Source: Candidatus Lustribacter sp.
GTDB lineage: Bacteria > Vulcanimicrobiota > Vulcanimicrobiia > Vulcanimicrobiales > Vulcanimicrobiaceae
DNA length: 64,000 bases
Reading direction: 5' to 3'
Assembly (NCBI GenBank): GCA_965277805.1
Contig: OZ255842.1
Coordinates: forward strand, 3,712,001 to 3,776,000
The notes under the pieces: generated by a model
Seen by the model: only the letters and a program-made list of their open reading frames with translations
Told to the model about the DNA's origin: nothing
The model's database searches: none
Translations under genes and position numbers: made by a program
Shown here: in pieces, positions 28,156 through 46,949 of the stretch
How the letters are laid out: each line of letters starts with the position of its first letter
Numbering within the stretch: position 1 is the stretch's first letter

Positions 28156-28338
28156 ATGGCCGCCAAACGCAAAGTTAAGCCCCCGAAGCCCCGTCTCGAT
28201 CTGCCCTGGACCGAGCTTTCCAAAGCGCAGCAAAACCAGCTGTACACCAACGCCCTGCAAGCCTACACGACGGGCAAAGGGCCGAATCCAGCGACCAAAG
28301 CGGAGTTTTTCCGCGCCAAGGTCGCCGCGAAGGCGTAG
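28156..28338 (+). CDS. Small basic hypothetical protein (60 aa) directly upstream of UbiD
   Basis: Fills the gap between punA and UbiD; stop is 3 nt before the UbiD ATG; Lys-rich. Confidence 0.6.
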   Translation: MAAKRKVKPPKPRLDLPWTELSKAQQNQLYTNALQAYTTGKGPNPATKAEFFRAKVAAKA

Positions 28339-28341
28339 ACA

Positions 28342-29829
28342 ATGAGCGTTGCGATCGAACGTACCGGCTCGTCCGCTAAGCTCGGACCGAATACGCCGCA
28401 AAACGACCTCCGCACGTTCATCGCTTCGGTCGAGGCGCATGGCGAACTCGCGACCGTGCGCGACGCGCACTGGAACAAAGAGCTCGGCGCCGTCACCGAA
28501 GTGCTCTACCGGCAAAAGGTCGAGAAATCGCCGATGCTGGTGTTCGACGACATCCCGGGCTACGAGCCGGGCTATCGTTGCACGTACGGCATGTTCGGCT
28601 CGCCGTATCGTTTGGGTCTCGTGCTCGGCATGGAAACGGCACTCGCCGATAATCGCAAAGCGCAACTCGACTACTTCCGCAAGAACATCAAGAAGGCGTA
28701 TAAGCAGATCCCGCCCGTGATCGTCGACGACGGTCCGGTGTTCGAGAACATCGCGCGCGACGGCGACGTCGATGTCGAGATTTTCCCCGTGCCGATCCAT
28801 CACGAACAAGACGGCGGCCGTTACATCGGCACCGCCTGCGGCGTGGTGACGCGCGATCCCGATACCGGCCGCATCAACGTCGGCACGTATCGCGTGATGG
28901 TCAAAGGCAAGAACCTCCTCGCGTCCTACATCTCGAACGGCAAACAAGGCCGCATTCACCGCGACAAGTATCTCAAAGCCGGCAAGCCGTGTCCGGTCGT
29001 CATCATTTGCGGCATCGATCCGATCACGTATCTCGCCGCCGCGTACACGATGGCCGACAGCGTGCCCGAATACGACTGGTGCGGCGGCATGATGGACCGT
29101 CCGATGGAATTGGTCGAAGGCGAAACGACCGGCTTGCCGTTTCCGGCCCGCGCCGACATCGTGCTCGAAGGTTGGATTCATCCGAGCGACGTGACCCGTG
29201 AAGGTCCGTTCGGCGAGTGGCACGGCTACTACGCCGGCGAAGCCCGCGACGAACCGCTGATCACGATCGACCGCGCGTACTATCGCAACAAGCCGATCCT
29301 CACGTGCGCCGCGAGCCAGAAACCGCCGCACTCGCATCTCTTCGAACGCTGCTTCCTGCGTTCGGCCGCGCTGCTCGACTCACTCGAAGGCGCGGGCATT
29401 CCCGACGTCACCGGCGCGTGGCTGCACCAGGCCGGTGCCGGACGCACGTTCGCGGTCGTATCGATCAAGCAACGTTATTTCGGCCACTCGACGCAAGTCG
29501 GGCTCGTCGCATCGCAAGTGAATCCGGTCGGCTACATCGCGCGCTGGATCGTCGTTGTCGACGACGACGTCGATCCCACCGACATTCACGACGTGATCTG
29601 GGCGATGGGCACGCGCTGCGATCCGAAGACGCAGACGACGCTGCTCGACCGATGCTGGTCATCGCGCCTCGACACGATGGTGACCGATTACTCGCGCCTC
29701 TACAACTCGCGCATGGTCATCGACGCGTGTCGCCCGTACGAGCGGCTCGACTCGTTCCCGCAAGTCGCCCAGAGTTCACCCGAACTCGCCGCGGCCGTGC
29801 GGGCAAAGTACCCCGACCTCTTCAAGTAG
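28342..29829 (+). CDS. UbiD-family prFMN-dependent (de)carboxylase
   Basis: DGGRYIGT, NVGTYR, EGPFGEWHGYY, VVVDDDVDP, WAMGTRCDP. Confidence 0.92.
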   Translation: MSVAIERTGSSAKLGPNTPQNDLRTFIASVEAHGELATVRDAHWNKELGAVTEVLYRQKVEKSPMLVFDDIPGYEPGYRCTYGMFGSPYRLGLVLGMETALADNRKAQLDYFRKNIKKAYKQIPPVIVDDGPVFENIARDGDVDVEIFPVPIHHEQDGGRYIGTACGVVTRDPDTGRINVGTYRVMVKGKNLLASYISNGKQGRIHRDKYLKAGKPCPVVIICGIDPITYLAAAYTMADSVPEYDWCGGMMDRPMELVEGETTGLPFPARADIVLEGWIHPSDVTREGPFGEWHGYYAGEARDEPLITIDRAYYRNKPILTCAASQKPPHSHLFERCFLRSAALLDSLEGAGIPDVTGAWLHQAGAGRTFAVVSIKQRYFGHSTQVGLVASQVNPVGYIARWIVVVDDDVDPTDIHDVIWAMGTRCDPKTQTTLLDRCWSSRLDTMVTDYSRLYNSRMVIDACRPYERLDSFPQVAQSSPELAAAVRAKYPDLFK

Positions 29830-29836
29830 GATCGCT

Positions 29837-30787
29837 ATGCGTCGTTCACCGTTTTTGATTTCGCTGGCTGGGGCGGCCGTGGCTTCACGGGTTGGGGCTC
29901 AGGACTTGCCGGCGGTTACGCTGGCTACGCTGATCAACGATACAGCGACGTCGGCGCTCTACGCCGCGAAGGCTGGGCTGTTCACCAAGTACGGGCTCAA
30001 CGTGCAGTTGCAAATCTTGCCGACCGGTGCGGCTGGGCAGGCGGCGGTGGCCGGTGGAGCGGCGCAATTCGGGCTTTCGAGTCTGGTCGGTATCATCGCG
30101 GCGCACGAGAAGGGCATCCCGTTTACGCTGGTCGCGCCGGCGGGCGTCGTCACCTCGGACGTGCCGTACTCGCAGTTCGTCGTGAAGGCCGATGCGCCGA
30201 TCAAAACCGGCCGCGACCTCAACGGCAAGATCATCGGCGCAGCCGGGCTCAAGGACATGGACACGGTCGCGATCATGAATTGGGTCGACCTCAACGGCGG
30301 CGACTCGAAGACGCTGAAGTTCGTCGAGATGTCGGGACCGGTGGCGCTCGCCGCGATCGAACAAGGCCGCATCGACGGCGCCGACCTCAACACCCCGACG
30401 CTCACGCGCGGACTCGAGGACGGCAAAGTGCGTTCGCTCGCGCAGATCTTCGATGCGATCGCGCCGCGCTTCGCCAACACCGGCTGGTTTACGACGACCG
30501 ACTATGCTGATAAAAACCGCAGTATCGTCGAGAAATTCGCGCGCGCGATGGCCGAAGCGAATGCCTACTGCAACGCCCACCACGCCGATACCGTGCAGTT
30601 AGTAGCCGATAGCGCGAAGATCGATCCGAAGGTCGTCGCACGGATGGCACGGATCACGTTCGGCGATTATCTGCGCGCGGCCGACATTCAGCCGCTCGTC
30701 AACGTGGCTGCGAAGTACGGCGCGATCGCGAAACCGTTCGACGCGAAAGCGCTGATCAGCCCTTATGCGTTGAAGCCATCCGCATAG
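29837..30787 (+). CDS. ABC substrate-binding protein, NMT1/SsuA/TauA-like
   Basis: Signal peptide; GLFTKYGLNV, AVAGG, DLNGK, GRIDG; paralog of 32181 and 37320. Confidence 0.85.
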   Translation: MRRSPFLISLAGAAVASRVGAQDLPAVTLATLINDTATSALYAAKAGLFTKYGLNVQLQILPTGAAGQAAVAGGAAQFGLSSLVGIIAAHEKGIPFTLVAPAGVVTSDVPYSQFVVKADAPIKTGRDLNGKIIGAAGLKDMDTVAIMNWVDLNGGDSKTLKFVEMSGPVALAAIEQGRIDGADLNTPTLTRGLEDGKVRSLAQIFDAIAPRFANTGWFTTTDYADKNRSIVEKFARAMAEANAYCNAHHADTVQLVADSAKIDPKVVARMARITFGDYLRAADIQPLVNVAAKYGAIAKPFDAKALISPYALKPSA

Positions 30788-31484
30788 TCGCGTCGCGACG
30801 CATGCAGTAGTTCCAGTAATTGTCGATACCCGCTGCGGTGCGCGTCTGGGCGCGCTTCGCACGGGCGTCGGCTGCGTCGGGCCACTTGTAGCGGAAGCCC
30901 GTCATCGCGAGCGTGCACTGCGCTTTGACCGCCGCTTCGAGATAAATCCCGACCATCGTGCACTCGCGGATGTTCTTGCCCGTGAACGCGACGCCGTGAC
31001 TCATGAGAAACACCGCGTCGGCTGCACCGAGCGATTGGGCAAGGCTCACGCCGAGTTCGGGCGTGCGGATGAGCGAGCACGTTTCTTGAAACTTCGGCTG
31101 GTCGTCGAACCACGCGCCCTCTTTGCCGATCGGGTGCAGCGGTTCGTCGGTGGCGGCGAAGATCTGCGAGTAGAACGCGTGCGTATGGCCGACGGCGTGC
31201 ACGTCGGGCCGCGCGCGGAGAATTTCGGAATGAATCGGCCACTCGTGGTGCCGGTTGCCGGTGCCCTCGAGCACCTTGCCGTCGAAGTCGACCAGCAGCA
31301 GATCTTCCGGCCCGTAGACTTCGTCCATGCCGATATGGCTGCGCTTCATCCAGAAGCCATGACCGCCGGGGTCGCGCCACGACACGTGCCCGGACGTGCG
31401 GTCCTCGTGCCCTTCGGCGGCGAGAATCCGGTGCGACGCGCACAATTCGTTGAGCTGCGTCGCGAAGTCAGTTTTGTTGGCCAT
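30756..31484 (-). CDS. Class II aldolase/adducin family protein
   Basis: SGHVS, EWPIHSEILRARPDV.AVGHTH, FLMSHG metal ligands. Confidence 0.88.
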   Translation of the reverse strand: MANKTDFATQLNELCASHRILAAEGHEDRTSGHVSWRDPGGHGFWMKRSHIGMDEVYGPEDLLLVDFDGKVLEGTGNRHHEWPIHSEILRARPDVHAVGHTHAFYSQIFAATDEPLHPIGKEGAWFDDQPKFQETCSLIRTPELGVSLAQSLGAADAVFLMSHGVAFTGKNIRECTMVGIYLEAAVKAQCTLAMTGFRYKWPDAADARAKRAQTRTAAGIDNYWNYCMRRDATMRMASTHKG

Positions 31485-31544: not shown

Positions 31545-32063
31545 ATGAGCGGCCATCAGTACACCGCGACGATTCGGTGGCAGCGCGGCGCCGATGAAGC
31601 GTTCAACGACCGGCGGTACAGTCGCGCGCATACGTGGGCCTTTGATGGAGGGGCCGAGATCGCGGCGTCGGCCTCGCCGCTGATCGTGCGCGCGCCATTT
31701 TCCGATGCGCACGCGGTCGATCCCGAAGAAGCGTTCCTCGCGTCGGTCTCCAGCTGCCACATGCTCTTCTTCTTGGACTACGCCGCGCAAGCGAACTTCG
31801 TCGTCGACCGGTATGAGGATACCGCTAGCGCGACCATGGGCAAGAACGAAGCCGGCCGCGACTACGTCGCGACGATCGTCCTAACACCGCAAATCCACTT
31901 CTCCGGCGCATCACCTGCCCCCGAGCAACTCGCCGCGCTCCATCACCGCGCGCACGAAGACTGCTTCATCGCCAACTCCATCCGCACCGAAGTCCGCGTT
32001 GACCCATGTCATCCCGAGCTTGTCGAGGGACCAACCGTACTTAAGCCCGATCGCCACCGATGA
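31545..32063 (+). CDS. OsmC/Ohr-family protein with repeat-derived C-terminal tail
   Basis: DPEEAFLASVSSCHML, AHEDCFIANS; tail CHPELVEGP is encoded by the repeat at 32007-32032. Confidence 0.88.
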   Translation: MSGHQYTATIRWQRGADEAFNDRRYSRAHTWAFDGGAEIAASASPLIVRAPFSDAHAVDPEEAFLASVSSCHMLFFLDYAAQANFVVDRYEDTASATMGKNEAGRDYVATIVLTPQIHFSGASPAPEQLAALHHRAHEDCFIANSIRTEVRVDPCHPELVEGPTVLKPDRHR

Positions 32064-32097
32064 TCACGCGCGGTCCCTCGACAAGCTCGGGATGACA
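32007..32097. repeat. Inverted pair of type A repeats (REPIN-like doublet)
   Basis: TGTCATCCCGAGCTTGTCGAGGGACC at 32007-32032 and its exact reverse complement at 32072-32097; 39-bp spacer. Confidence 0.92.
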
Positions 32098-32180: not shown

Positions 32181-33110
32181 CTACGAGCCAACCAGTAATT
32201 GCGAGGCGGGGAAGCTGTTCTTGAGGCCGCCGTATTTGGCGGAGGCGTCGATGAGGGGTTGCATTTCGGGGGTTGTCAGGCGCTCGGCGAAGACGACGCG
32301 CGATGCATTGGCTCCGACCGGGATGCCGGTTGAAGCTTCGAGGATTTTGGCCGACTCGGTTTGGTTGTGGTTCGCCCACTGCGCGGCCATCACCATCGCT
32401 TGCGCGTACGCTTTGACGACGTCGGGGTGCGCTTTAGCATAAGCTTGCGTGGTGAACCAGGTCCCGAGCACCCATTGTTTGCCGATCGAATCGAACGGCG
32501 TTGCGAGAATCTTGACTTTCTTGGCCGCCAGTGCGGCGCCTAGTTCGGGCTCGGCCATCATGGCCGCATCGATGCGGCCGGTCACGATCGCTTCGGCCGT
32601 GGCCGAGAACGGAATCTCGACAATGTGGGTTGAGGTCCAGTTACCGCCGTTCGTGTCCATCCACTTATTGAAGCCGACTTCCTGAACGTTCTTGAGGCCG
32701 CCGACGGCGATCGTTTTGCCGTTGAGGTCCTTGGCGCTGCGCAACGTCGAGTTCGTGGCGACAACGAGTTCGCTCTGATGCGTGCGCGAATCGTAGGTGT
32801 TCGCGCCGGCGATCGCAACGAACGGCAAGCCGCGCAGAAATGCGGCGCACAGCGAACTGAGATTGGCTTGCCCGATGTCGGCGGTTCCGCCGGCCACCGC
32901 GGCGGCGACCGATGCGCCTTCGTTGATCGGCATGATCTGTACCGTCAAGCCGACTTTTTTGAAGAAGCCCTTCTCCTGCGCGTAGTAGACTTGCGAGGCC
33001 GCATCGATCGGCGGCATCGCCACGCGTACCGTCGGCATCGCGGACTGCGCCCGTGCCGCCGAAGCGGCGCCCAGGGCGAGCATACCGCCCGCGAATATGG
33101 CTCGTTTCAT
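32181..33110 (-). CDS. ABC substrate-binding protein, NMT1/SsuA/TauA-like
   Basis: MKRAIFAGG signal peptide; YYAQEKGFFKK, AVAGG, KDLNGK, GRIDA. Confidence 0.85.
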   Translation of the reverse strand: MKRAIFAGGMLALGAASAARAQSAMPTVRVAMPPIDAASQVYYAQEKGFFKKVGLTVQIMPINEGASVAAAVAGGTADIGQANLSSLCAAFLRGLPFVAIAGANTYDSRTHQSELVVATNSTLRSAKDLNGKTIAVGGLKNVQEVGFNKWMDTNGGNWTSTHIVEIPFSATAEAIVTGRIDAAMMAEPELGAALAAKKVKILATPFDSIGKQWVLGTWFTTQAYAKAHPDVVKAYAQAMVMAAQWANHNQTESAKILEASTGIPVGANASRVVFAERLTTPEMQPLIDASAKYGGLKNSFPASQLLVGS

Positions 33111-33619
33111 CCTTGGAACTCCGGTGAATCTTGCATTTGCGTCATTTCGTGCGCCAGGTGTTCGGAGATCGGCGTATTGATGAACGCGATCCACGTCGAC
33201 GGCTTCTCCGTATCGAGGTTGAAGTGTTGATGTTCGACGCCTTCGGGGCGCAGGGGCAGCAGCATCAGGTCGCCGGCTTCCCATTCCCAGCGCTCGCCGT
33301 CGACCATCGAGTAGCCGCGGCCCTCGATCACGTAGATCACGAGACCGCCCTGATGTTTGTGCTTGCCCGACGTCGTGCGCAGTTCGTGCGAAAACACGAG
33401 CCACTGCTGCAGCGGCGTGTCCTTGTGAATCTGATGGTTGAGGTAGTACCGGATGCGGCCCTGGCGCGAAAGCTCGACTTCGCGGTCGTCCTTGTGAATG
33501 ACAACCGGACCCATGGCGTTGCGTTCGACGCGCTCGCGATAGAAATCGAGCATCTTGTCGTAGGTGCGTTCTTGACCGGGTTCGCGCTCGCGCGTGCGGG
33601 TGCGTTCGTTATCGGTCAT
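33107..33619 (-). CDS. Monocupin with intact 3-His metal site (gentisate-dioxygenase-like domain)
   Basis: SGKHKHQGGLVIYVIEGRG ... GDLMLLP..GVEHQHFN. Confidence 0.85.
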   Translation of the reverse strand: MTDNERTRTREREPGQERTYDKMLDFYRERVERNAMGPVVIHKDDREVELSRQGRIRYYLNHQIHKDTPLQQWLVFSHELRTTSGKHKHQGGLVIYVIEGRGYSMVDGERWEWEAGDLMLLPLRPEGVEHQHFNLDTEKPSTWIAFINTPISEHLAHEMTQMQDSPEFQG

Positions 33620-34134
33620 GCCGGCCGCCGTTGGAATTCGGGTGCGTCTTCGAGTTGCTCGAAGCCCGAGCCGCGATCGACGCTCGTGCACGCGTAGAGA
33701 TTCGGTTCGACCGCGAGGAAACGCGCCGGCGCCTCAGGGTCTTCGTTGAAGTGCTGCACGACGATGCCGCCGCGCCGAAGCGGCAGGTTGATGACGGCAC
33801 CCGCTTCCCACGGATGCTTCACTCCGTCGAGCAGCGTATAGCCGCGGCCCTCGATCACGTAGATCACTTGACCGCCTTGAAACTTTACCCGGCCCGTGCG
33901 GCTGCCGGGCGGTATCTCTTGCTCGAAGCAGAGATACGTCGAGAGCACCGTGTCTTTGATCTCGGGGTGCATGTACCAGCGCATGAACCCTTGGCGGTTG
34001 GCTTCAAGCGGCAGGTCGCGCCGCTTGAGCACTTGCATGCCGTCCTTGCGCTCGGCGCGCTGCCGGTCGCGCAAGGCGAGCAGTTCGCCCCAGAAGTTCT
34101 TCTCGGCTAAACGCTCGGTACGGTTGTCGCTCAC
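33616..34134 (-). CDS. Monocupin paralog lacking metal-binding histidines
   Basis: TGRVKFQGGQVIYVIEGRG ... GAVINLP..GIVVQHFN; GTG start overlaps the FAH stop (TAGTG). Confidence 0.8.
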   Translation of the reverse strand: MSDNRTERLAEKNFWGELLALRDRQRAERKDGMQVLKRRDLPLEANRQGFMRWYMHPEIKDTVLSTYLCFEQEIPPGSRTGRVKFQGGQVIYVIEGRGYTLLDGVKHPWEAGAVINLPLRRGGIVVQHFNEDPEAPARFLAVEPNLYACTSVDRGSGFEQLEDAPEFQRRPA

Positions 34135-35006
34135 TACGTACGCGCAGCGGCGGCGACGCGCGAGGTGACGGGCAACTTCATCTTGCCGACGCGCGCGATC
34201 TCGATCTCGACCGTGTCGCCGGGAACGAGCGGGCCGACGCCGGCCATCGTGCCGCTGGCGATGATATCGCCCGGTTCGAGCCGCGTCACATCGGAGCAGG
34301 TCTGAATCTGTTCGCGGATGCCGACGATCATTTGGTTCGCAACCGCATGCTGACGCAGCTCGCCGTTGACCCACAGCTTCATGTCGATGTCATCGGGCGC
34401 GCCGACCTCATCGGCCGTCGTGATCCACGGACCGACGGGGCAGAACGTATCGAACGACTTGCGCATGACGCGTTCGCCCGCGCCGCGCATCGTGATGTCC
34501 ATCAGACACGCGTAGCCGAAGACGTGATCGAGCGCCTTGTCGACCGGAATGTCGTTGCCACCGGTGCCGATGATCGTCGCCATCTCGCACTCGTGATGGA
34601 ACGTGCGGCCCGGGCGATCGGGAATGACGATCGCGTCGGCCGGTCCGATCAGCGAGGCGTTGGACTTCATGAAGAAGCCCGCTTCGTCGGCCGGCAGGCT
34701 GTTGGCAACGCCGAAACCGTTCGTCTTCATCTCCGCTGCGTGATCTCTGAAGTTCGACGGCATAGCGAGCAATTTGTGCGGCCACGGGATCGGCGTTTCC
34801 AATCGCACGCCGCTGAGCGGCTCCGCCTTCGCGGTCTTGAGCGCGGCTTCGATCTTCGGACGCAGCGTCGCGAAGTTCTTGATCACCCGGTTCATGCCGA
34901 CCGGCGGCCATTCACCCGGGTCGACGCCGCAGATTGCGGTGACGTCGACGATTTGGTCACCGGTAACGATACCGATTTTGCCACCATTAAAGCGTGCGAT
35001 TTTCAT
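34134..35006 (-). CDS. Fumarylacetoacetate hydrolase family protein
   Basis: FFMKS, HHECEMA, GYACLMDIT.R, RKSFDTFCPVGP, PGDIIASGT. Confidence 0.92.
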   Translation of the reverse strand: MKIARFNGGKIGIVTGDQIVDVTAICGVDPGEWPPVGMNRVIKNFATLRPKIEAALKTAKAEPLSGVRLETPIPWPHKLLAMPSNFRDHAAEMKTNGFGVANSLPADEAGFFMKSNASLIGPADAIVIPDRPGRTFHHECEMATIIGTGGNDIPVDKALDHVFGYACLMDITMRGAGERVMRKSFDTFCPVGPWITTADEVGAPDDIDMKLWVNGELRQHAVANQMIVGIREQIQTCSDVTRLEPGDIIASGTMAGVGPLVPGDTVEIEIARVGKMKLPVTSRVAAAART

Positions 35007-38256: not shown

Positions 38257-39819
38257 CTAAGCGTTTGCCTTCTTGTCGACCAGTTTGTAGCGGCCCTCAG
38301 CGGCCTCACGGCCGAGCACGCCTTCGTTGCGCAGTTCGTCGAGCATCACGACGACTTCGCGGCCGTCGGCGGTGCCGAGCGCGGCCATCAGTTGTTCGAA
38401 GTACTTCGGCCCGTCGGCGAGCGCGTCGCGCACCGAGGCGAAACGCGGACCAACGAACGACGGCGGATTCGGTAAACTGAACTCGAGACCGCTCTTGCCG
38501 CCGAACGGCAGCGTGAGGTCGAAGCCGCACTTCGAGCCGACCTTCTGATCGGCCGGCAGCGAGGGATCGAGCGGCGAGACGCGATAGCCGCTCTCGACGT
38601 AGACGTCGTGATCGGGCTGCAGGCGCGTCGCGATCGCCCATTCCATCTGCTCGTCGGAGAAGATGTCGATGTCGGGGTCGACGACGAACACGTTCTTCAC
38701 GTTGCCCATGCAGGCGAACACCGCCGACATCGCGTTGCGCGCTTCACCGGCGTTGCGCTGACGGATCGCGCAGCGCACGTTGTAGACGCCGCCGGTCGCC
38801 GGGGGTGCGTACACCGCGACGGGTTCGCGAATCGCGTTCTGCAGCGCGCGCCACACCAGCGCTTCGGTGCGCAGCGTCGTGAGCTGCGCGGTATCGGTGC
38901 GGCTGAGCGTTTTGCCGCTGATGCTCAGCGTTTGGAAGAGGGCGTCTTTGCGATGCGTGATCGCGGTGATGTGGAACACCGGATTCGTCTTCACGCCGCC
39001 GTAGTAGCCGAGGAACTCACCGAACGGGCCTTCGGATTCGATGTAGCCTTCGTCGCCGAGATAGCCTTCGATCACGTACTCGGCATCGGCCGGCACGCGG
39101 ATGTCGTTGGTCACGCTCTTGACGGTTGGCAGCGGCGCGTCGCGCAGCGACGACATCAAGCCGATTTCATCGCCCGGGATGCGCATCGTGGCAGCGAAGT
39201 AGTCGATCGGATGACTGCCGACGACGATGCTGAGCGGCAGCCGTTCGCCGCGCTCGACCGACGCCTTGTAGATGTTGCGCAGATCGCTGACGGCGACGAG
39301 ATCGATGCCGGTCTCGTGTTTGCCGCGCAGCATCAAACGGCGCAGGCCGACGTTGCTGAGGCCGGTTGCGGCATCCATCGAGATGTCGAGCGCCGCGGAG
39401 ATATACGGGCCGCCGTCGAGGCCGTGATGCACGTGCACCGGCAGCTTCGTCACGTCGGCATCGGCGCCGGTCAGGATCACTTCATGCACCGGCGCTTGCG
39501 CGCTCGTCAGCTCGATGAATTCGGGCTTGCGATTGAGCCGGCGCATGATTTCGGTCAGCAGGCCTGCGGCCGGCACGCCGAACGCGCGCGCCATGCGTTC
39601 CCGGCTGCCGAGCGCGTTGCCGACCAGCGATTGATGATCGGGGCCGACGTTCGTGAAGAGCACCGCGCGCGGGTTGCCTTCGAGAATCGCCGCCACCGCG
39701 GCGAGCGACAGCGGCTCGTCATGCCGTTCGAGCTGCTCTGCGTCGAGGTTTTCGACGAAATTCTTCAGCCGAAACTTCTCGGTATCGACGCCCGCCGGCA
39801 CACGCTCTGCACTGATCAT
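38257..39819 (-). CDS. UbiD-family (de)carboxylase with C-terminal extension
   Basis: DGGPYIS, NVGLRR, EGPFGEFLGYY, VVDPDIDI, WAIATR, LDPS; about 60 extra C-terminal residues. Confidence 0.92.
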   Translation of the reverse strand: MISAERVPAGVDTEKFRLKNFVENLDAEQLERHDEPLSLAAVAAILEGNPRAVLFTNVGPDHQSLVGNALGSRERMARAFGVPAAGLLTEIMRRLNRKPEFIELTSAQAPVHEVILTGADADVTKLPVHVHHGLDGGPYISAALDISMDAATGLSNVGLRRLMLRGKHETGIDLVAVSDLRNIYKASVERGERLPLSIVVGSHPIDYFAATMRIPGDEIGLMSSLRDAPLPTVKSVTNDIRVPADAEYVIEGYLGDEGYIESEGPFGEFLGYYGGVKTNPVFHITAITHRKDALFQTLSISGKTLSRTDTAQLTTLRTEALVWRALQNAIREPVAVYAPPATGGVYNVRCAIRQRNAGEARNAMSAVFACMGNVKNVFVVDPDIDIFSDEQMEWAIATRLQPDHDVYVESGYRVSPLDPSLPADQKVGSKCGFDLTLPFGGKSGLEFSLPNPPSFVGPRFASVRDALADGPKYFEQLMAALGTADGREVVVMLDELRNEGVLGREAAEGRYKLVDKKANA

Positions 39820-39822: not shown

Positions 39823-41481
39823 CTAACCTCCCGCAACGAGTTCTCCAGGTATCTTCCACGCATAGGGCGCGGCACCGCGCACGCAATCGGCCAGCAGACC
39901 CGGCTCCGGCATCGATGCGCCGCGCCAGGCCACATGTCCGTCCGGACGCACTAAGACGAGCGGCGCCGCGTACAACGTCACCGCGGCCGGTTCGCCCGAC
40001 AGATCGACCACCTTGACCGGGACCTTGCGCTCGCGCAGCGCGGCCGCGACCGGCTCGGGCTGCGCCTCGGCCGTGAACTGTAAGAGCACGAAGCCGTCGC
40101 CGAAGAGATCGAGCGTCGACCGCCCGTCGGAGAGGTACACGTGCGGCGCGCGGGCCCCGGCGCGCGACTCTTGCACGTACCTAGCGACTTCGAGCGGCGG
40201 AGCAACCGTGCCGTCGGGCCAGTTGATCGGCGATTCGTCGTACCGGTAGCCGAGATGGATGCCCAGCGTGTACCACTCGTGGCTCATCGCCTTGGCGTAC
40301 CGCGGCCCGAGTTCGGCCCGCGTGGCCTCGCCTTCGGGCGTAGCGTCGCACAGCGCCGGATTCTTGCCGGGCGAGAGCATGCGGGCGAGGTTCGCGCTCG
40401 ACTCGCGGCCGTTGCGCACGGCGACCGGCCGCCGTTCGGGCGTGTAGGATTCGAGTAGCCCCGCGCCGCCCCAGCCGCGCAGCGTTGCATCGAGTTTCCA
40501 GCTGAGGTCGACCGCATCGCCGATCCCGGTGTTCATGCCGAAGCCGCCGGTCGGCGACATCACGTGCGCCGCATCGCCGGCGATGAAGACGCGGCCTTGC
40601 TGATAGGTTTGCGCGACGAGTTCGCGCCGCGTCCACGACGTAACGGAGAGGATCTCGAAGTCGAAATCGATGCCGACCGCGCGGCGGATTTCGTTCGCGA
40701 TTTCTTCGCGCGTAAAACCGTCGGGCGGCGAGTTCGTGATCGACATGCGCCAGCGGTCCCAGCCGTTGATCGCGACGATCGTCGACCACATGCCTTCGGG
40801 GCTCAGGATGATGAAGCGGTACGCTTCGCCCTTGTCATGCAGCGAAAGCAATTGCGGCGCGCGGAAAATGATGTTCGTCGTTTGCGAGAGGACCGGCGTG
40901 CCTTCCATGCCGCCCGCGATTTGCTTCGCGATGCGGCTGCCCGCGCCGTCGCAGCCGACCAGGTACTGCGCTTCGAGGTCGAACGTTTTTTCCGTTGTCA
41001 GATCGGTGACGTGCGCTATGACGCCGGCGTCGTTTTGTTCGAAGCCGGTGAGCTGGTGGCGATAGCGTAGGTCGACGTGCGGAAACGAACGGGCCCATGC
41101 GGTCAGGATCGGGTCGAACATGTCTTGCGGACAGCGTTCGCGCTTCTGCGGGCTCTGTTCGGGCGGTTTGCTTTCGCGCATCGACGGAAAACGTTCGCGG
41201 CTGAGCTCGTAGCCCGTGAGGCTCGTGACGTAGACGTTGTCTTGCGCCAGATCGCGGTTGTACGCGCTCGCTTCGACGTTCGGCACGATGCCCCAGCGCC
41301 GGCAGAACTCCATCGTGCGCACGCCCACCATGTCCATGCGCGGCTGTTCGATCGTTCCGTCGCTGCGCTCGAGCACGGTGACCGCCTGACCGCGCGTGGC
41401 CAAATCGCCGGCAAGCGCGAGGCCGACAGGGCCGGCACCGACGATGAGGATCGGAGCGGAAACGGAGCTATTCGCGGACAC
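39823..41481 (-). CDS. FAD-dependent aromatic monooxygenase (class A, PheA/TfdB-like)
   Basis: IVGAGPVG, VGCDGAGS, GRVFIAGDAAH..SPTGGFGMNTG, LVRPDGHVAWR. Confidence 0.92.
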   Translation of the reverse strand: MSANSSVSAPILIVGAGPVGLALAGDLATRGQAVTVLERSDGTIEQPRMDMVGVRTMEFCRRWGIVPNVEASAYNRDLAQDNVYVTSLTGYELSRERFPSMRESKPPEQSPQKRERCPQDMFDPILTAWARSFPHVDLRYRHQLTGFEQNDAGVIAHVTDLTTEKTFDLEAQYLVGCDGAGSRIAKQIAGGMEGTPVLSQTTNIIFRAPQLLSLHDKGEAYRFIILSPEGMWSTIVAINGWDRWRMSITNSPPDGFTREEIANEIRRAVGIDFDFEILSVTSWTRRELVAQTYQQGRVFIAGDAAHVMSPTGGFGMNTGIGDAVDLSWKLDATLRGWGGAGLLESYTPERRPVAVRNGRESSANLARMLSPGKNPALCDATPEGEATRAELGPRYAKAMSHEWYTLGIHLGYRYDESPINWPDGTVAPPLEVARYVQESRAGARAPHVYLSDGRSTLDLFGDGFVLLQFTAEAQPEPVAAALRERKVPVKVVDLSGEPAAVTLYAAPLVLVRPDGHVAWRGASMPEPGLLADCVRGAAPYAWKIPGELVAGG

Positions 41482-41517
41482 GCAGACCCCTTAGGAAAAA
41501 AATGTTATGGTAGTATA

Positions 41518-42534
41518 GTGAAACGCATAGCAGTCGTTCTCCTCGCCTTCGCCCTCATTACGGGCAGCGGCGCTTCGGCCGCCGGACCGGCGGACCAAGC
41601 GCTGGAAGACACGGTCGTCTGGTACGGCACGCCCGGCACGCGCGCTTACGTGCAGCCGGCGCTCGACGTGTGGGCAAAACTTCATCCGCACACCGCTATC
41701 AACGTAGTAGAAGGCAACGGGCCCGATATTCTGGAGCGGGTCAATACCGAAGCACGCGCCGGACACCCGGTGGCCGACCTGATCACGCTCGGCGACCTGG
41801 CGATGTGGCAGCTCGCTTCGGTCAATGGCCTCGGTACGTACGCCCCCAATCTCGTGCCCAATGTACGCGCCGTCGTTCCGCGCATCAAGGATCTCGTCGA
41901 TACGCAGCACCGCTTCGTACCGACATATCTGATCCTCTTCGGCATGACGGTCAACACCAACGCGCTTGCGCCCGCGCAGCAGCCGAGCCGCTGGAGCGAT
42001 CTGCTCGATCCGAAATACGCCGGTCAAATCGGCATGCACGACATCGGCTTGCTCGGCGCGGGGCTCAGCCTCGTGATGGTCGGCCGCGCTACGCTCGGCG
42101 ATAACTTCTATCAGAACCTGGTGAGCAAACAGCGGCCGCGCACGTACGGCCGCGCCCCGGAGCTCGACGCCGCCGTGCAGAGCGGCGGACGCGCCATCGC
42201 GATCCCCTCGACGTATGCCAACGCGATGCAGGCCAAAGGCGCACCGATTCGCTGGATCGCGCCGAAAGACGGCGTGTTTTTCGTTGCCGTGTATACCGGC
42301 ATGGTGAAGAACGCGACGCACCCGCGCGCCGCCCAAGCGTTTATGAATTTTCTGCTCGACCGCGACACGCAGTCGGCGATCGCGGCGGCCAACTTGATAC
42401 CGGTGACGACGCTGGCCGCTTCACCGGTCGATCTCGCGAAACTGAAGTTCCTCGGCAAGGGATCGGTCACCGAAGATCAAGCCACGCATCTCGGCGACTG
42501 GTTAGCGATCGGCCAGCACCTCAAAGGCGAATAG
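41518..42534 (+). CDS. ABC substrate-binding protein (Fe3+/thiamine/polyamine-type family)
   Basis: Signal peptide; PSRWSDLLDPKYAG; HPRAAQAFMNFLL. GTG start follows TGtTATGGT. Confidence 0.82.
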   Translation: MKRIAVVLLAFALITGSGASAAGPADQALEDTVVWYGTPGTRAYVQPALDVWAKLHPHTAINVVEGNGPDILERVNTEARAGHPVADLITLGDLAMWQLASVNGLGTYAPNLVPNVRAVVPRIKDLVDTQHRFVPTYLILFGMTVNTNALAPAQQPSRWSDLLDPKYAGQIGMHDIGLLGAGLSLVMVGRATLGDNFYQNLVSKQRPRTYGRAPELDAAVQSGGRAIAIPSTYANAMQAKGAPIRWIAPKDGVFFVAVYTGMVKNATHPRAAQAFMNFLLDRDTQSAIAAANLIPVTTLAASPVDLAKLKFLGKGSVTEDQATHLGDWLAIGQHLKGE

Positions 42535-42978
42535 TTGAGCGATCTGTTGCCGCTCGACGAGAGCCTCGATTTCCTGATTCGCGATACGCGTCGCGTGCTG
42601 CTGAAATCGATCGAAGCGCGACTGGCCAAAGACGGCATTCCGCTCGGCGCTTGGTTTCCGCTGCGCATCCTCTACGAAGAAGACGGGATCACGCAGCGCG
42701 AACTGAGCCGCAAACTCGGCTACTTAGATGCGGCAGCCGGCTCGATCGTCGAGGTCATGGAGAAGCTGAAACTCGTGCGCCGCCAGCGCAACGAAACCGA
42801 TCGCAGAAAGATCAACGTCTTTCTCACGCCGCTCGGCAAACGCATGGGCAAAAAAACAATCGATCACATGCGCGCCGTCAACGAACGAATCGCCCTCGGC
42901 CTCACCAAAACCGACGAAGAAACCCTGCGAACCCTCCTCCGCCAAGCCCACGACAACCTCACCCGCCCAACTGACTAA
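42535..42978 (+). CDS. MarR-family regulator
   Basis: DGITQRELS, LVRRQRNETDRRKINVFLTPLG. Confidence 0.92.
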   Translation: MSDLLPLDESLDFLIRDTRRVLLKSIEARLAKDGIPLGAWFPLRILYEEDGITQRELSRKLGYLDAAAGSIVEVMEKLKLVRRQRNETDRRKINVFLTPLGKRMGKKTIDHMRAVNERIALGLTKTDEETLRTLLRQAHDNLTRPTD

Positions 42979-43105: not shown

Positions 43106-43681
43106 TTAGGAGGCTTGTTGCGCTACGCCTACGACGACCTTGCGGGCGCGGCGGACTGAGGCGGCGGGGGGCTTTGTTTCTTCGAAGCCGCGGTTGATGG
43201 AGAGTAGCAGTTCCATGAGGTGGCGGCGATCAGCGGTTGAAACGTGGCGCAGCTTTTCTTCGATCATGCGGTGGTGCATCGGCGCAGCAACTTGCATCAG
43301 CTTGACGCCCTTCGGGGTGAGCTTGACGACGACGCTGCGCGCATCGCGCGGGTTCTTGGTTCGTTTGACCAGCCCGTCGCGCTCCAGCCGCTGGACCATC
43401 TGCGCGACGCTCGCATGCGTGGTATGCACGTAGAGACGGATTTCGTTCTGCGTCAGCGTGTAATCCGCACCGGCCGCATAGAGGGTGACCAGATGATTGT
43501 AACTGCCCGAGTTGAGCCCGAGGCCGGCGAGCCATCCGTTCGCCTCGTCGTTGATACGCTGTGCGAGCGCGCGGATGGCAAAGAATACGCGCGTCGAATC
43601 GCGATTATACTCCCCGGGAAACTGCTCTTCGAGCGGCTGGACCATCGCGTCGGTGAGAGCGAGTATCCTCTTGTCGGCCAT
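43106..43681 (-). CDS. MarR-family regulator
   Basis: LTQNEI, VQRLERDGLVKRTKNPRDARSVVVKLTPKG. Confidence 0.9.
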   Translation of the reverse strand: MADKRILALTDAMVQPLEEQFPGEYNRDSTRVFFAIRALAQRINDEANGWLAGLGLNSGSYNHLVTLYAAGADYTLTQNEIRLYVHTTHASVAQMVQRLERDGLVKRTKNPRDARSVVVKLTPKGVKLMQVAAPMHHRMIEEKLRHVSTADRRHLMELLLSINRGFEETKPPAASVRRARKVVVGVAQQAS

Positions 43682-43774
43682 CGGGATCAAATTCGCCGGG
43701 TTGCCGGGGTCGTCCGCCCCAGGTAAACTCAGGCGCCATAGAAAAATTCTTCAACAACCATCAAGGAGAACCGC

Positions 43775-44632
43775 ATGTCCGCCACTCGTTCGCGCTACGT
43801 CATCGCCAACGGCATCCGCACGCACTACACCGAGGCAGGCGAAGACGGCCCCGTGGTGGTCTGCCTGCATGGCGGCGGCGCGGGTTCATCCGGTGACGCG
43901 GGCATGGGCGGACTGCTGCCCGAGTTGGCGCCGAACTTCCGCGTGCTCGCCATCGACGGCGTCGGCGGCTTCGGCCTGACCGACACGAACGCGCCGACGC
44001 CCTACGGCGTGCAGAGCCGCGTCGACCACCTCGAAGCGGTGCTCGATACGCTGATGATCGACAAGTTCATCATCTGCGGCAATTCTCAAGGCGCTTGGGT
44101 GGCCGCGAAATATGCGATCCTGCATCCTGACCGCGTGCAAAAGATGATGATTATCGGCAGCGCCACGATCGCGGCCGCGATGGGCATCCCCGAAGAGTTC
44201 ACGCCGGCGTTCAAAGCCTTGGCGAACTACGACTACACGCGCGACGGCATGAAGAAAATGCTCGAAGCGCTCGTGCACAACCATGCGAAGATCGACGACA
44301 AGCTGATCGAGGGCCGCTACGAATCGTCGGTTCGTCCGGGCGCGAAGGAAGCGCTAGCCGCGTTCCAAGTCGGCCACCGCTATCTGCAAAGCGACGTCAT
44401 GCGTTGGAACTTCGACATGCGCACGTCGCTGCCGGAACTCACCAAACACATCAAGACGGTCTCGGTGTGGGGTAAGGAAGATCAGATGGCGCCGGTCAAG
44501 GTCGGCCAGCAGCTCGAAAAACTGCTGCCCGACGTGAAATGGGAATACGTCGAGGGCGCCGGACATCAAGTGCAGACCGATCATCCCGAACGTCTCGCCA
44601 AGATCATTCTCGATCTCTCCAAGAGCAGCTAA
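43775..44632 (+). CDS. Alpha/beta hydrolase, meta-cleavage-product hydrolase-like
   Basis: AAGGAG RBS; LHGGGAG, GNSQG, WGKED, AGHQVQTD. Confidence 0.85.
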   Translation: MSATRSRYVIANGIRTHYTEAGEDGPVVVCLHGGGAGSSGDAGMGGLLPELAPNFRVLAIDGVGGFGLTDTNAPTPYGVQSRVDHLEAVLDTLMIDKFIICGNSQGAWVAAKYAILHPDRVQKMMIIGSATIAAAMGIPEEFTPAFKALANYDYTRDGMKKMLEALVHNHAKIDDKLIEGRYESSVRPGAKEALAAFQVGHRYLQSDVMRWNFDMRTSLPELTKHIKTVSVWGKEDQMAPVKVGQQLEKLLPDVKWEYVEGAGHQVQTDHPERLAKIILDLSKSS

Positions 44633-44651
44633 AGCCGAACGAGGGCTCCGC

Positions 44652-45818
44652 ATGTTGACACGCGAGCAAAACGAACGCCTAACACGCGTCGGACCGGAAA
44701 CACCCGGCGGCAAGCTGTTGCGCCGTTATTGGCAAGCGCTCTGCCCGACGAAAGAACTCGCGCACGACGTCGACCGTAAGCGGATCCGCATCCTGGGCGA
44801 GGATTTGCTGCTCTTCCGCGATGCGCAAGGAACGATCCGCTGCGTGCAAGAGCGCTGTCCGCATCGCAGCGCGTCGCTCTACTTCGGGTTTGTCGAACCC
44901 GACGGTATTCGCTGCTGCTACCACGGCTGGAAGTTCGACTGCGTGAACGGACAGTGCGTCGAGCGTCCGTTCGAACCGGCGGCGCCGCACGCCGGCATCA
45001 AACTCAAGACGTATCCGGTGCAGGCGCTGGGCGGACTGCTCTTCGTCTACATGGGGCCCGATCCGGACAAAGCGCCGCTGCTGCCGCGCTGGGACGTGCT
45101 CGCGCGCGAGGACAAGGGCAAGAGCATTCTCGTGATGCCCGAGCATCATTGCAACTGGCTGCAGATTCAAGAAAACACCGCGGACTCCGTGCACACGTTC
45201 TATCTGCACGGTCATCGCGCGGCGGTGCTGAACGGCGGCGTGCCCGATCGCATCTCGGCGTACTTCTATCGTCCGATCAAAGCGTACGATTGGAAAACCT
45301 CGCACTGGGGCGTCGAGAAAATGGTCGAGTACGGCGGCGATCAAGCCGAACTCGAAGTGCGGCCGCCGCTGATCTTTCCGAATATTCTGCGTATCCCGGA
45401 AGGCCCGGTCGAAGCGCTGCACTTCCGCGTGCCGATCGACGATGAGTGGACGCGGATCATCTGGATCGGCCTCTACGCCGGCGTCCCCGGCGGCGAGATG
45501 GGCCCGGCCGACCAGGTCCCCTATACCTACGCCGTCGATCCGCCGGGCGTCACCGTCGAGACGGTCGACATCTCGACGTTTTACGGCCAGGACCGCGTCG
45601 TCTGGGAAACCCAGGGCGCGATTACCGACCGCTCGGTGGAGACGTTGGGCGCTTCGGATCGGGGAATCGTCCTTTTCCGCCGAATGCTGGCCGACCAGAT
45701 CGACAGAGTCGAGCGCGGCGAAGAGCCCGATGTTGCGGTGGTGCGCGATCCGGCGCAGAATGAATGCATCACCTTCGACGTCACGACACCGTGGTTTGAG
45801 ATGAGCAATGCTAGCTGA
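44652..45818 (+). CDS. Rieske non-heme iron oxygenase alpha subunit (phthalate 4,5-dioxygenase/LigXa-like)
   Basis: RVGPETPGGKLLRRYW; CPH..CCYHGW Rieske site; ENTADSVHTFYLH; QD mononuclear Fe site. Confidence 0.92.
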   Translation: MLTREQNERLTRVGPETPGGKLLRRYWQALCPTKELAHDVDRKRIRILGEDLLLFRDAQGTIRCVQERCPHRSASLYFGFVEPDGIRCCYHGWKFDCVNGQCVERPFEPAAPHAGIKLKTYPVQALGGLLFVYMGPDPDKAPLLPRWDVLAREDKGKSILVMPEHHCNWLQIQENTADSVHTFYLHGHRAAVLNGGVPDRISAYFYRPIKAYDWKTSHWGVEKMVEYGGDQAELEVRPPLIFPNILRIPEGPVEALHFRVPIDDEWTRIIWIGLYAGVPGGEMGPADQVPYTYAVDPPGVTVETVDISTFYGQDRVVWETQGAITDRSVETLGASDRGIVLFRRMLADQIDRVERGEEPDVAVVRDPAQNECITFDVTTPWFEMSNAS

Positions 45819-45833
45819 GCAGAGGAGCCGCTG

Positions 45834-46949
45834 ATGGGCGAAATTCTTGGTCTGGGCCTGAGCCACTATCCCGGGCCGGTCGCGCCGCCCAAACATTGGT
45901 CGCGCATGATTCAGCGCAACATGGAAGTCGGCCGCATCCCCAAGGATCTCTACGAAGACAAATCGCGCTGGCCCAAGGCGATGCTCGAGGAGATGAGCGA
46001 CGACAACGGTCTCGCCGCGGCCGAGGAACATCGCGACCGGCTGCTGGCCGGCTACGTCGTTTTGCGCGAAGCGCTGGATGCGTTCAAGCCCGACGTCGTG
46101 CTGATCTGGGGCGACGATCAATTCGAGAATTACAAGAAGACGTGCGTACCGGCTTTCGCGCTCGGCATTTTCGATGAGCTCGACGTGCGCCCGTTCGGCG
46201 GCGGTAAGCAAGTCTTTCAAACGACCGAGAACGTGTGGAACCTCGCGCCGGAGACGCCGCTGCACGTGCGCGGTCACCGCAAGGCGGCATCGCAACTCGC
46301 GCGGCACCTGATCGAAGATCAGTTCGATATCGCCTACTCGCTCGAGTTCGGCCACCCGGCCGGCCTCGCGCATTCGTTCAACAACACCGTGCTGTATCTC
46401 GATTACGAGGCGCACGGCGATCGCTTTCCCTACCCGATCATTCCGTGTCACGTGAACTGCTACGGCAGCGATCTGATGAAGACGGCCGCCGGCATGATCG
46501 GCGAGGGCGAGAACGTGCTCTCACCGCCGGCGCCGACGCCGCGCCGGTGCTTCGATCTGGGCGCGAGCGTGGCGCGGTTCTTTGCCGCGAGCCCGTGGCG
46601 CGTCGCACTGATCGGCTCGTCGAGCTGGTCGCACGGTTCGCTCACGAAAAAGCACGGCCGCTTGTATCCCGATCTCGACGCCGATCAACGCCGCCTGGCG
46701 GAATTGCAGAACGGCGAGTTCCGCAACTGGGGCAAACTCACCGAAGCGGAAATCGACGATACGGGTCAGCATGAGCTGCTGAACTGGATCTGCCTGGCCG
46801 GCGCGATGTCGGAGCTCAACCGTTCGGTCGAGATCGTCGACTTCGTGCCGAGCTACATCTTCAATTCATCGAAATGCTTCGCAGCATTCCCGCCGGCGGG
46901 TTTGAAAATCGGCTCCGTCGGAGCGTTGGCGGCGTCAGCGCCCGCCTGA
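45834..46949 (+). CDS. Class III (LigB-like) extradiol ring-cleavage dioxygenase
   Basis: GLSHYP, WGDDQFEN, LAHSF, GSSSWSH, GQHELLNW. Confidence 0.82.
   Translation: MGEILGLGLSHYPGPVAPPKHWSRMIQRNMEVGRIPKDLYEDKSRWPKAMLEEMSDDNGLAAAEEHRDRLLAGYVVLREALDAFKPDVVLIWGDDQFENYKKTCVPAFALGIFDELDVRPFGGGKQVFQTTENVWNLAPETPLHVRGHRKAASQLARHLIEDQFDIAYSLEFGHPAGLAHSFNNTVLYLDYEAHGDRFPYPIIPCHVNCYGSDLMKTAAGMIGEGENVLSPPAPTPRRCFDLGASVARFFAASPWRVALIGSSSWSHGSLTKKHGRLYPDLDADQRRLAELQNGEFRNWGKLTEAEIDDTGQHELLNWICLAGAMSELNRSVEIVDFVPSYIFNSSKCFAAFPPAGLKIGSVGALAASAPA

Follow-up and report, generated by a model that had tools for sequence, protein, structure and literature searches.

The subject of this analysis is the stretch from 28156 to 46949 of a 64,000-nt window (the whole stretch of DNA analysed, to which feature positions refer) from a soil bacterium, a Candidatus Lustribacter sp., whose genome is a single contig of 5.53 Mb. 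With a confidence a little better than even, this island is read as a fixed docking site that holds at least three separately inherited cassettes for different acids, cassette B being one oxidative route. Cassette A consists of a UbiD-type decarboxylase (UbiD1), the solute-binding protein (SBP) SBP1 and a class II aldolase-fold protein; cassette B is a minus-strand operon running from a FAD monooxygenase (FMO) to a pair of cupins and SBP2; cassette C comprises a hydrolase, a Rieske oxygenase and a LigB-fold dioxygenase. The docking site would be long-resident, with three or more uptake-plus-enzyme cassettes stacked between punA and the DUF922/sigma-28 genes. The evidence that carries this reading is the distribution of the blocks among congeners and the repeated assembly of the cassette B enzyme classes in distant bacteria. 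In the following, G000 to G007 denote the eight genomes of the genus, G000 being the source genome, and L numbers denote the loci compared, including metagenome contigs.

Distribution of the blocks across the genus

Block A was present in 8/8 genus genomes and operon B in 5/8, contiguous in G000, G003 and G004 and running across contig breaks in G001 and G007. Operon B was also found, in the same gene order and next to block A, on metagenome contig L139 (72-92% identity). Block C occurred in the same five genomes as B; its Rieske gene was missing in two of the five (G001 and G007), where the hydrolase gene overlaps the LigB gene, and SBP4 was missing in the same two, so that FMO faces MarR1 directly. 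Block A occurred without B and C in the remaining three genomes. In G002 the OsmC gene runs directly into the DUF922 ortholog, leaving the site empty; in G006 the site is occupied by a different transporter-enzyme cassette; and in G005 block A is at another locus. The arrangements in G002 and G006 are positive evidence of modularity and not assembly gaps.

Gene content and setting of the island

Nineteen genes were called in the island with our own codon-model gene caller, and all families were confirmed by Pfam and NCBIfam. The genes named in the initial annotation were all found at the place and on the strand given there, with matching families. Purifying selection was seen on 19/19 genes (ratio of non-synonymous to synonymous substitution rates, dN/dS, 0.05-0.29; one congener ortholog per gene). 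GC content at third codon positions (GC3) was 0.74-0.84 for island genes and 0.81 +/- 0.04 for the genome mean, and a Pfam scan found no mobility families among the 19 proteins; recent horizontal insertion was rejected on these two grounds. The island directly follows gap-pgk-tpiA-gpmI-punA, as annotated, and is bounded on the other side by the DUF922/sigma-28 genes.

Several partner genes are absent from the island: no UbiX, Mo enzyme FAD subunit or 2Fe-2S subunit, and no Rieske reductase, ferredoxin, ATP-binding cassette (ABC) permease or ABC ATPase was found within it. A minus-strand SBP considered at 41491-42336 had no family match and was rejected, the real gene being on the plus strand. 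Sigma-70 scanning (3 promoters against 2.8 expected) and terminator scanning (24 against 17 +/- 4.4 expected) were uninformative. Outside the island, a tryptophan 2,3-dioxygenase-like gene (read by eye, unscanned) at 50278-51058 of the window appeared as two overlapping frames and in G003 as one 259-aa frame; a sequence error or a frameshift is possible.

Cassette B as one proposed oxidative route

The operon reads, from its first gene:

39823..41481, minus strand: FMO, a PRK06126/RebC-like FAD monooxygenase (629 bits against a cut-off of 445, NF004780); first gene of cassette B
38257..39819, minus strand: UbiD2, a prenylated-FMN (prFMN) decarboxylase; its uncharacterised clade is nearest HmfF (best PDB match 6h6v, E 2e-59)
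37320..38255, minus strand: SBP3, NMT1-type binding protein (PF09084), syntenic in L023, L024, L139, L220 and L226
35003..37264, minus strand: xanthine-oxidase-family molybdenum (Mo) large subunit (PF01315/02738/20256), with no small or medium subunit alongside
34134..35006, minus strand: FAH-family C-C hydrolase (PF01557)
33616..34134, minus strand: CupA, metal-free paralog 43% identical to CupB and its predicted partner subunit
33107..33619, minus strand: CupB, metal-binding half of a split gentisate dioxygenase (GDO)-like bicupin (H87, H89, H130, H132)
32181..33110, minus strand: SBP2, NMT1-type binding protein (PF09084), behind cupB in L222 and L136-L139; travels with the cupin pair

The tight packing described in the initial annotation was borne out: neighbouring genes overlap or are 1-3 nt apart, save for SBP3 and the Mo gene, which are separated by 55 nt, and start and stop codons overlap from the Mo gene through SBP2. 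Both UbiD proteins score over TIGR00148, have all three UbiD Pfam domains and align over the UbiD motifs (catalytic Arg / E-x4-E set). The best PDB match of FMO is RebC (2r0c, E 1e-108). The Mo large subunit has the loop Y-R-G-A-G-R, retains the catalytic G-G-G-E and falls below all equivalog cut-offs. The active-site loop motif of form I CO dehydrogenase carries a Cys; assignment to Cu,Mo CO dehydrogenase form I was rejected, as the loop here contains none and TIGR02416 scored 396 of 991 bits.

The neighbourhoods of the UbiD2 clade were taken from the best 80 of at least 594 loci, all of other species and many of them incomplete. A Mo large subunit was found in 23/80, a flavin monooxygenase of either type in 16/80 and an ECH-fold gene in 12/80. 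Nine non-syntenic loci with an FMO at 50% or above were viewed; six carry a bicupin, one (L141) a cupin pair directly behind FMO, here 75% identical and joined directly to cupA-cupB, and two neither within 8 kb. Likewise, non-syntenic FAH relatives at 52-65% adjoin a GDO-like bicupin in 4/4 cases, and in the loci examined with FMO or FAH at 50% or above the cupin slot was filled by a bicupin or a pair, never both. A distant, rearranged version of cassette B was found in G005, with FMO (61%), a GDO-like bicupin, FAH (54%), two UbiDs (43-44%) and a Mo enzyme (49%) accompanied by small and medium subunits; it additionally contains an ECH-fold gene and an aldolase, and its gene order differs from that of the island. 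The alphaproteobacterial locus L115 combines FMO (57%), a bicupin, UbiD (47%), a three-gene transporter and a Mo enzyme (46%), and Burkholderia RPE67 and Sagittula E-37 have FMO (53-54%) with FAH (52%) and a bicupin. In Paraburkholderia and Neorhizobium, relatives of UbiD2 at 55-57% have a monooxygenase, a Mo enzyme and an ECH-fold gene beside them; the Paraburkholderia cluster, which apparently falls into two parts, also includes UbiX and fumarylacetoacetase. That the same classes of enzyme come together again in distant bacteria makes cassette B look like a coherent route, as yet unnamed.

As a separate observation, six loci from Paraburkholderia, Burkholderia and other Pseudomonadota (L052, L063, L066, L074, L094 and L110) have a conserved set of UbiX, a 3-hydroxybenzoate-6-hydroxylase-like monooxygenase, a VOC protein, fumarylacetoacetase, a hydrolase and UbiD, and mostly also carry Mo medium, small and large subunit and ECH genes. 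The set occurs in cultured strains, and the searches made gave no pathway assignment for it.

In the proposed route, cassette B would be expressed under MarR1; the Mo enzyme would hydroxylate a ring carbon adjoining a heteroatom, or oxidise an aldehyde; UbiD2 would take off a carboxyl group and the RebC-like flavoprotein would hydroxylate. A CupA-CupB heterodimer with one metal site would then open the ring of an ortho-hydroxy acid other than gentisate, and the FAH enzyme would hydrolyse the acylpyruvate-type product. The best guess for the substrate is a small N- or O-heteroaromatic (di)carboxylate. prFMN, the small and medium Mo subunits, reductases and permeases would be supplied from elsewhere in the genome.

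The split cupin pair

Judged by sequence, the cupin pair is a split bicupin in which CupB retains the iron ligands and CupA has lost them. H87, H89, H130 and H132 of CupB (the three iron His and the equivalent of His162) were invariant in 31/31 aligned sequences, with the motifs present in 81/81, and no H-x-H was found in 50/53 members of the CupA family, the other three being unmatched. By sequence and by predicted fold (predicted local distance difference test score, pLDDT, 84), CupB is closest to gentisate/salicylate 1,2-dioxygenases (3bu7, 2d40, 2phd). Ten longer relatives were read, of which six are CupB-then-CupA fusions, three are A-then-B joins, which may be assembly artefacts, and one is a chimera. 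The bicupin layout is an active domain followed by a vestigial one, according to the accessible portion of PMC10306065, and the B-A fusion order matches it; an FAH gene is adjacent in the island. The modelled CupB-CupA complex scored 0.88, with 0.00 for the best of three controls; the mark applied is reached by 116/157 solved pairs and 2/215 mismatched pairs. Between runs, at least 99% of contacts were the same, and partner pLDDT was at least 91.

The pair differs from gentisate/salicylate dioxygenases in that its domains are separate genes and in that its family is tied elsewhere to a Cdc48-type ATPase. It also differs at two residues of salicylate 1,2-dioxygenase (SDO), counted along the 3nst alignment: Arg127 is replaced by Ile95, and Asp174 by an invariant Ala145. 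Arg127 is essential in SDO and loss of Asp174 is linked to absence of gentisate activity, as given in the accessible portion of PMC10306065, so gentisate itself is an unlikely substrate, and the gentisate-type label first attached to the cupin and FAH genes does not hold. A ring with an easily ionised hydroxyl, such as a hydroxy-N-heteroaromatic acid, would fit CupB, which together with CupA is a candidate for Fe(II)/O2-dependent ring cleavage. The single-chain gentisate dioxygenase model TIGR02272 scored 26 of 442 bits.

The architecture has a precedent in hydroquinone 1,2-dioxygenases, which have two different cupin subunits and one metal site (PMC10306065, accessible portion). Unlike those, CupA and CupB are both 170-aa paralogs (43%), and no hydroquinone dioxygenase was among the listed PDB sequence or fold matches of CupB. 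The CupA/CupB family comprises at least 469 clusters. Five cupin pairs occur in G000, in five different neighbourhoods; searches of CupB against plasmids gave two partial matches only, and the family was found in 0/250 other genomes of the phylum sampled, the 250 including a single congener.

A Cdc48-type ATPase linked to the cupin family

Among 77 metagenome cupB loci, cupA was adjacent in 34, a Cdc48/p97-type double AAA gene was directly upstream of cupB in 17, 10 were too short and 16 had another arrangement. Overall the ATPase was found in 25/77, mostly at 60-71% identity, including L137 and L138, where near-orthologs of the island pair (CupB 92-95%) have the Cdc48 gene directly upstream of cupB. 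It is absent from the window. The single copy in G000 (G000:C1:4412285-4414381; L038:12286-14382) lies beside cupA of another pair, and the gene is present in 6/8 genus genomes. The second Walker B motif reads D-Q in 11/16 long copies, and no second motif was matched by pattern in the other five. Several of the copies examined (L038, L138, L158, L175, L177, L204 and L205) have an N-terminus rich in His (as many as 9 in 40 aa), a hint that they may handle metal. In L204, L158, L165 and L181, two bicupin types, MarR, a ferredoxin, an amidohydrolase, cupA-Cdc48-cupB and a UbiD1-like gene occur together, in L204 with an additional dihydrodipicolinate synthase (DHDPS)-fold aldolase; by analogy this cluster resembles a hydroxynaphthoate-type route.

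A fuller proposal, which is doubtful as a whole, is that an N- or O-heteroaromatic (di)carboxylate is broken down aerobically by cassette B along an undescribed pathway, that its ring is opened by the cupins as a new two-subunit class of dioxygenase without the Arg/Asp pair of the gentisate enzymes, that the Cdc48-type ATPase assembles, metal-loads or reactivates them in trans, and that cassettes A and C feed in bicyclic precursors.

Regulators, spacers and repeats

The features between cassettes B and C and at the A/B junction are:

41482..41517, no strand: divergent spacer, AT-rich, 36 nt, with a near-palindromic stretch kept in 5/5 aligned
41518..42534, plus strand: SBP4, SBP_bac_6-type binding protein (PF13343), variable insert
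42535..42978, plus strand: MarR1 (PF12802/PF01047)
43106..43681, minus strand: MarR2, divergent from the hydrolase, spacer conserved in 4/4
32007..32097, no strand: repetitive extragenic palindromic (REP)-like repeat, inverted pair at the A/B junction with a 26-nt perfect inverted repeat

FMO and SBP4 start divergently, 36 nt apart, and SBP4 is apparently leaderless. The spacer between them is likely the MarR1 operator, and from its position MarR1 likely regulates cassette B. Relatives of MarR2 (55-75%) stand beside Rieske and/or LigB genes in L212 and L232, and MarR2 likely regulates cassette C. Conserved divergent spacers, each next to a MarR gene, precede FMO and the hydrolase, which suggests two regulons.

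The 13-nt core of the REP-like repeat occurs 124 times in G000, 105 of these outside called genes. In the window, copies were found at the A/B junction, where one extends the OsmC reading frame, inside cassette B (near 37307), at the B/C junction (42985), and at 5380, 20209, 59177 and 60170.

Cassette C

43775..44632, plus strand: alpha/beta hydrolase of meta-cleavage-product (MCP; C-C) type, all top PDB matches being MCP hydrolases (1j1i, E 2e-33)
44652..45818, plus strand: Rieske oxygenase, phthalate 4,5-dioxygenase/LigXa-like (PF00355 and PF19301; 7fhr, E 4e-52), variable insert in C
45834..46949, plus strand: LigB-fold (class III) extradiol dioxygenase of an uncharacterised subfamily (PF02900; Atlas 0.98 to LigB clusters)

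The hydrolase has the Ser-His-Asp triad and an H-G-G-G oxyanion loop, with Gln in place of the Trp after the catalytic His, and is below the HsaD and BphD cut-offs. In the Rieske protein the Rieske and mononuclear iron motifs are present, the nearest structures are phthalate 4,5-dioxygenases, and a LigXa_C domain was found. In the LigB-fold enzyme H11, H180, H267 and E314 are invariant in 9/9 aligned sequences, H11, H267 and E314 answering to the first His, the catalytic His and the Glu of LigB-type enzymes, and the second iron His is replaced in 9/9 by Gln96, with an invariant Glu98 beside it; we take this position to be that of His61 in LigB numbering. The same His change may also occur in DesZ/LigZ. 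For relatives at 40-42% carried by plasmids of Rhodococcus and Sphingobium, alpha/beta hydrolases were found nearby in 3/3 loci viewed, two of which also have two-subunit Rieske oxygenases. For the 40% relative on pANTQ-1, the terms 'extradiol' and 'aldolase' do not occur in the accessible portion of the AntQ-1 paper (PMC9836352), and no substrate could be assigned from it, nor from H62, which carried no annotation. Judged by sequence, a biaryl or bicyclic diol cleaved in the meta mode would suit cassette C; in the proposed scheme the cassette would act under MarR2, with meta-cleavage followed by hydrolysis and the Rieske entry step optional.

Cassette A and the adjoining reading frame

28156..28338, plus strand: orf60, basic 60-aa protein (dN/dS 0.05; no Pfam, NCBIfam or Atlas match)
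28342..29829, plus strand: UbiD1, prFMN decarboxylase of a PpcB/7PDA-like clade, over the TIGR00148 cut-off; cassette A
29837..30787, plus strand: SBP1, NMT1/SsuA-type binding protein (PF09084), behind UbiD1 in 8/8 genus genomes; cassette A
30756..31484, minus strand: class II aldolase/decarboxylase-fold protein (PF00596), convergent on SBP1; cassette A
31545..32063, plus strand: OsmC-like protein (PF02566), with its 3' end entering the REP-like repeat

Cassette A would import one acid and decarboxylate it non-oxidatively. UbiD1 orthologs at 87-100% were found in 8/8 genus genomes. Its E-G-P-F-G-E motif is intact, and its best PDB match is 7pda (E 1e-89), which we take to be the phenazine-1-carboxylate decarboxylase PhdA. 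It resembles the PpcB/7pda-like UbiDs in its best matches (7pda and the PpcB model) and departs from them in scoring below the PpcB cut-off (274 of 469 bits), in having no phenylphosphate carboxylase partner genes and in being at most 35-44% identical to named plasmid records. One relative, at 42%, lies in a plasmid cluster of Aromatoleum EbN1, presumably the phthalate cluster. The class II aldolase-fold protein matched PDB entries 8ix6 and 2z7b at only E 1e-19 to 1e-20, and the PhtC model scored far below cut-off. orf60 is 80-100% conserved near punA in six genus genomes. It was rejected as an obligatory small subunit of UbiD1, since it is absent before UbiD1 (orthologs 89-93%) in G005 and G007 and two genes intervene in G002. 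OsmC is a variable passenger, not being between the aldolase and SBP2 genes in G001 and L139.

Alternative readings

Several observations weigh against the reading of the island as separate cassettes with B as one route. Among the 80 UbiD2 loci, FMO, cupin and Mo genes occur together outside the island in just one, and no Mo gene was seen in 57. In G002, orthologs of cupA-cupB-SBP2 (cupins 87-94%) stand alone elsewhere in the genome. In L177 a bicupin and a cupin pair (with ATPase) are both present, which makes it less likely that the pair is a plain substitute for the bicupin; from these two cases the pair need not be the ring-cleaving enzyme of B. The bicupin of G005 retains the Arg and Asp missing from CupB, and from sequence the two may not be isofunctional. 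The pass of the CupA-CupB model may reflect likeness to solved bicupins, as halves of a split gene can pass in this way. Against the separate inheritance of the blocks, A, B and C are kept together in up to 5/8 genomes (G001, G004 and G007 partly across contig breaks). Cupin pairs stand beside UbiD1-like genes (35-39%) in 10/77 cupB loci and beside Rieske and/or LigB genes in 6 and 3 of 77. The cases beside Rieske-LigB (L188, L212, L230 and L231) are the best remaining support for chemistry common to the blocks, and from these recurring neighbours the blocks may be chemically related.

One alternative is that cassette B is a chain of smaller units (FMO with FAH, UbiD2 with the Mo enzyme, and cupA-cupB-SBP2) acting on different substrates, the cupins being a general-purpose, Cdc48-served metalloenzyme and not a ring cleaver. 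This is unlikely, although it is the alternative that survives best. The free-standing cupins of G002, the Cdc48 gene directly upstream of near-ortholog cupB in L137 and L138, the ATPase in 25/77 cupB loci, the five neighbourhoods of the five G000 pairs and the loss of the Arg127 and Asp174 equivalents from CupB all fit it, as does the insertion of a REP copy, and in G004 also of an aldolase fragment, between SBP3 and the Mo gene. Against it stand the overlapping start and stop codons from the Mo gene to SBP2, the order kept in L139 at 72-92%, the re-assembly of the B classes in G005 and L115, the direct joining of FMO to the pair in L141, and the filling of the cupin slot by bicupin or pair.

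The initial annotation had drawn both decarboxylases and both ring-cleavage modes into one funnel. Spelled out, the Rieske-LigB-hydrolase set would first open a bicyclic, biaryl or N-heteroaromatic (di)carboxylate, and the UbiD, Mo, FMO, cupin and FAH enzymes would finish the monocyclic acid released. The gene order of all blocks, kept in G003 and, with contig breaks intervening, also in G001, G004 and G007, the co-occurrence of cupin pairs with Rieske-LigB and UbiD1-like genes, and the position of the LigB subfamily near C-C hydrolases in other phyla would agree with it, and its logic resembles that of the LigX-LigZ-LigY-LigW route for 5,5'-dehydrodivanillate (DDVA) in the accessible portion of PMC12997858. 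The single funnel is nevertheless improbable, as the blocks separate in congeners (G002, G005 and G006 have A but neither B nor C), 2/5 carriers lack the Rieske entry enzyme, there are two separate MarR-linked divergent promoter regions, and B and C occur together in 0/80 UbiD2 loci of other species. Joint conservation of all blocks, expected of one co-inherited pathway, fails across the relatives compared.

Comparison with characterised systems

In agreement with what was first proposed, the cluster is read as catabolic, with (hetero)aromatic carboxylates as its probable substrates, and no named pathway was found to match it. No island enzyme reaches an equivalog cut-off, and curated NCBIfam cut-offs are unreached by all of them except for the broad UbiD and PRK06126 subfamily models; orthology to HmfF, PpcB, VdcC, PhtDa, PhtC, BphD/HsaD or gentisate dioxygenase was rejected, all specific models being below cut-off. 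A literature search that covered few subscription papers turned up nothing describing the island's set of genes, a cupin pair linked to Cdc48, or the breakdown of aromatic compounds by the genus.

The hmf gene set consists of the UbiD HmfF, the Mo enzyme HmfABC and HmfD/E. The island is like the hmf furan pathway in that HmfF (6h6v; PMC10176493, accessible portion) is the best solved relative of UbiD2, whose clade is often found with a Mo enzyme; it is unlike it in lacking a CoA ligase, an ECH-fold hydrolase, UbiX and the Mo small subunits and in having a flavin monooxygenase, cupins and FAH. To the DDVA biphenyl route of Sphingobium SYK-6 (LigXa, LigZ, LigY, LigW) it is similar in its LigXa_C Rieske protein, LigB-fold dioxygenase, C-C hydrolase and nearby decarboxylase. 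LigY and LigW are of the amidohydrolase fold, whereas the island hydrolase has an alpha/beta fold, the decarboxylases are UbiDs and the Rieske gene is optional; the likeness seen is one of logic. FMO shares with the RebC/StaC-type flavin monooxygenases its best PDB match and a passed NF004780 cut-off, and differs in lying among catabolic genes, cupin and FAH included, where indolocarbazole biosynthesis genes are absent. That the island represents a characterised pathway in diverged form (hmf furan, DDVA, phthalate 4,5-, nicotinate or picolinate route) is very improbable: UbiD2 is nearest HmfF with relatives often beside a Mo enzyme and an ECH-fold gene (12/80), and the Rieske protein has a LigXa_C domain, but no equivalog cut-off is reached, HmfF scores 205 bits only, the cluster has no CoA ligase, ECH or amidohydrolase gene, and phthaloyl-CoA decarboxylase is among the weakest UbiD1 matches (E 7e-10).

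Genome-wide expansion and helper genes

BLAST searches against the 5123 called genes of G000 returned 285 NMT1/SsuA-type binding proteins, 104 Rieske oxygenases, 34 cupins, 26 FAH proteins, 23 class II aldolases, 18 FAD monooxygenases, 15 UbiDs, 15 Mo large subunits and 14 LigB-like genes. The island is the densest run of 19 genes in the genome (9/9 enzyme families, runner-up 5), a rank that is circular, the families having been chosen from the island. UbiD genes number 8-21 in the eight genus genomes and 0-3 in 33 others of the family, order and class, which include the unpublished G015 and G036 (range unchanged without both). Expansion of catabolic families is a genus trait. The claim that the island is the best candidate for an undescribed system has to be seen against the 13-15 UbiDs, approximately 100 Rieske oxygenases and five cupin pairs of G000.

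Helper genes are few. One UbiX gene scored over cut-off, and 8 Mo FAD subunits and 12 2Fe-2S subunits were found, all outside the island. Approximately 100 Rieske oxygenases were accompanied by 2 PF00175 (FNR-type) and 0 PF14759 reductase matches, and 285 binding proteins by approximately 41 TauC-like permeases, with 19/285 SBPs three genes or fewer from one. Given this genome-wide scarcity, partners missing from the cluster are normal for G000. The closest Mo paralog (56%) adjoins FAD and 2Fe-2S subunit genes and a UbiD2 paralog (60%) elsewhere in G000, and these subunits are the likely source in trans for the island Mo enzyme. Among other paralogs in G000, a UbiD1 paralog (47%) at G000:C1:4589904-4591372 (L044:5905-7373) is in pieces of 107 and 382 aa, either a split gene or a frameshift; two UbiD2 paralogs (L042, L043) lie behind an AMP-ligase-like gene and ahead of genes for ECH and a hydrolase, one of them being followed in turn by homogentisate dioxygenase and fumarylacetoacetase genes.

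Implications

The island enzymes belong to known families, but for none of them did the searched models, structures and papers yield a close relative that has been characterised. They make up a compact set for testing, in which the two-subunit cupin is widespread (469 or more clusters) and uncharacterised, the LigB subfamily has a changed iron ligand, and the two UbiD clades could extend biocatalytic CO2 fixation to heteroaromatics. Unusual combinations of catabolic genes are the norm in G000, and pathway information would lie only in the sub-modules that recur. The genus emerges as a specialist aromatic-acid scavenger within the Vulcanimicrobiota, in which scarce cofactor, reductase and permease genes would be common to hundreds of enzymes and binding proteins.

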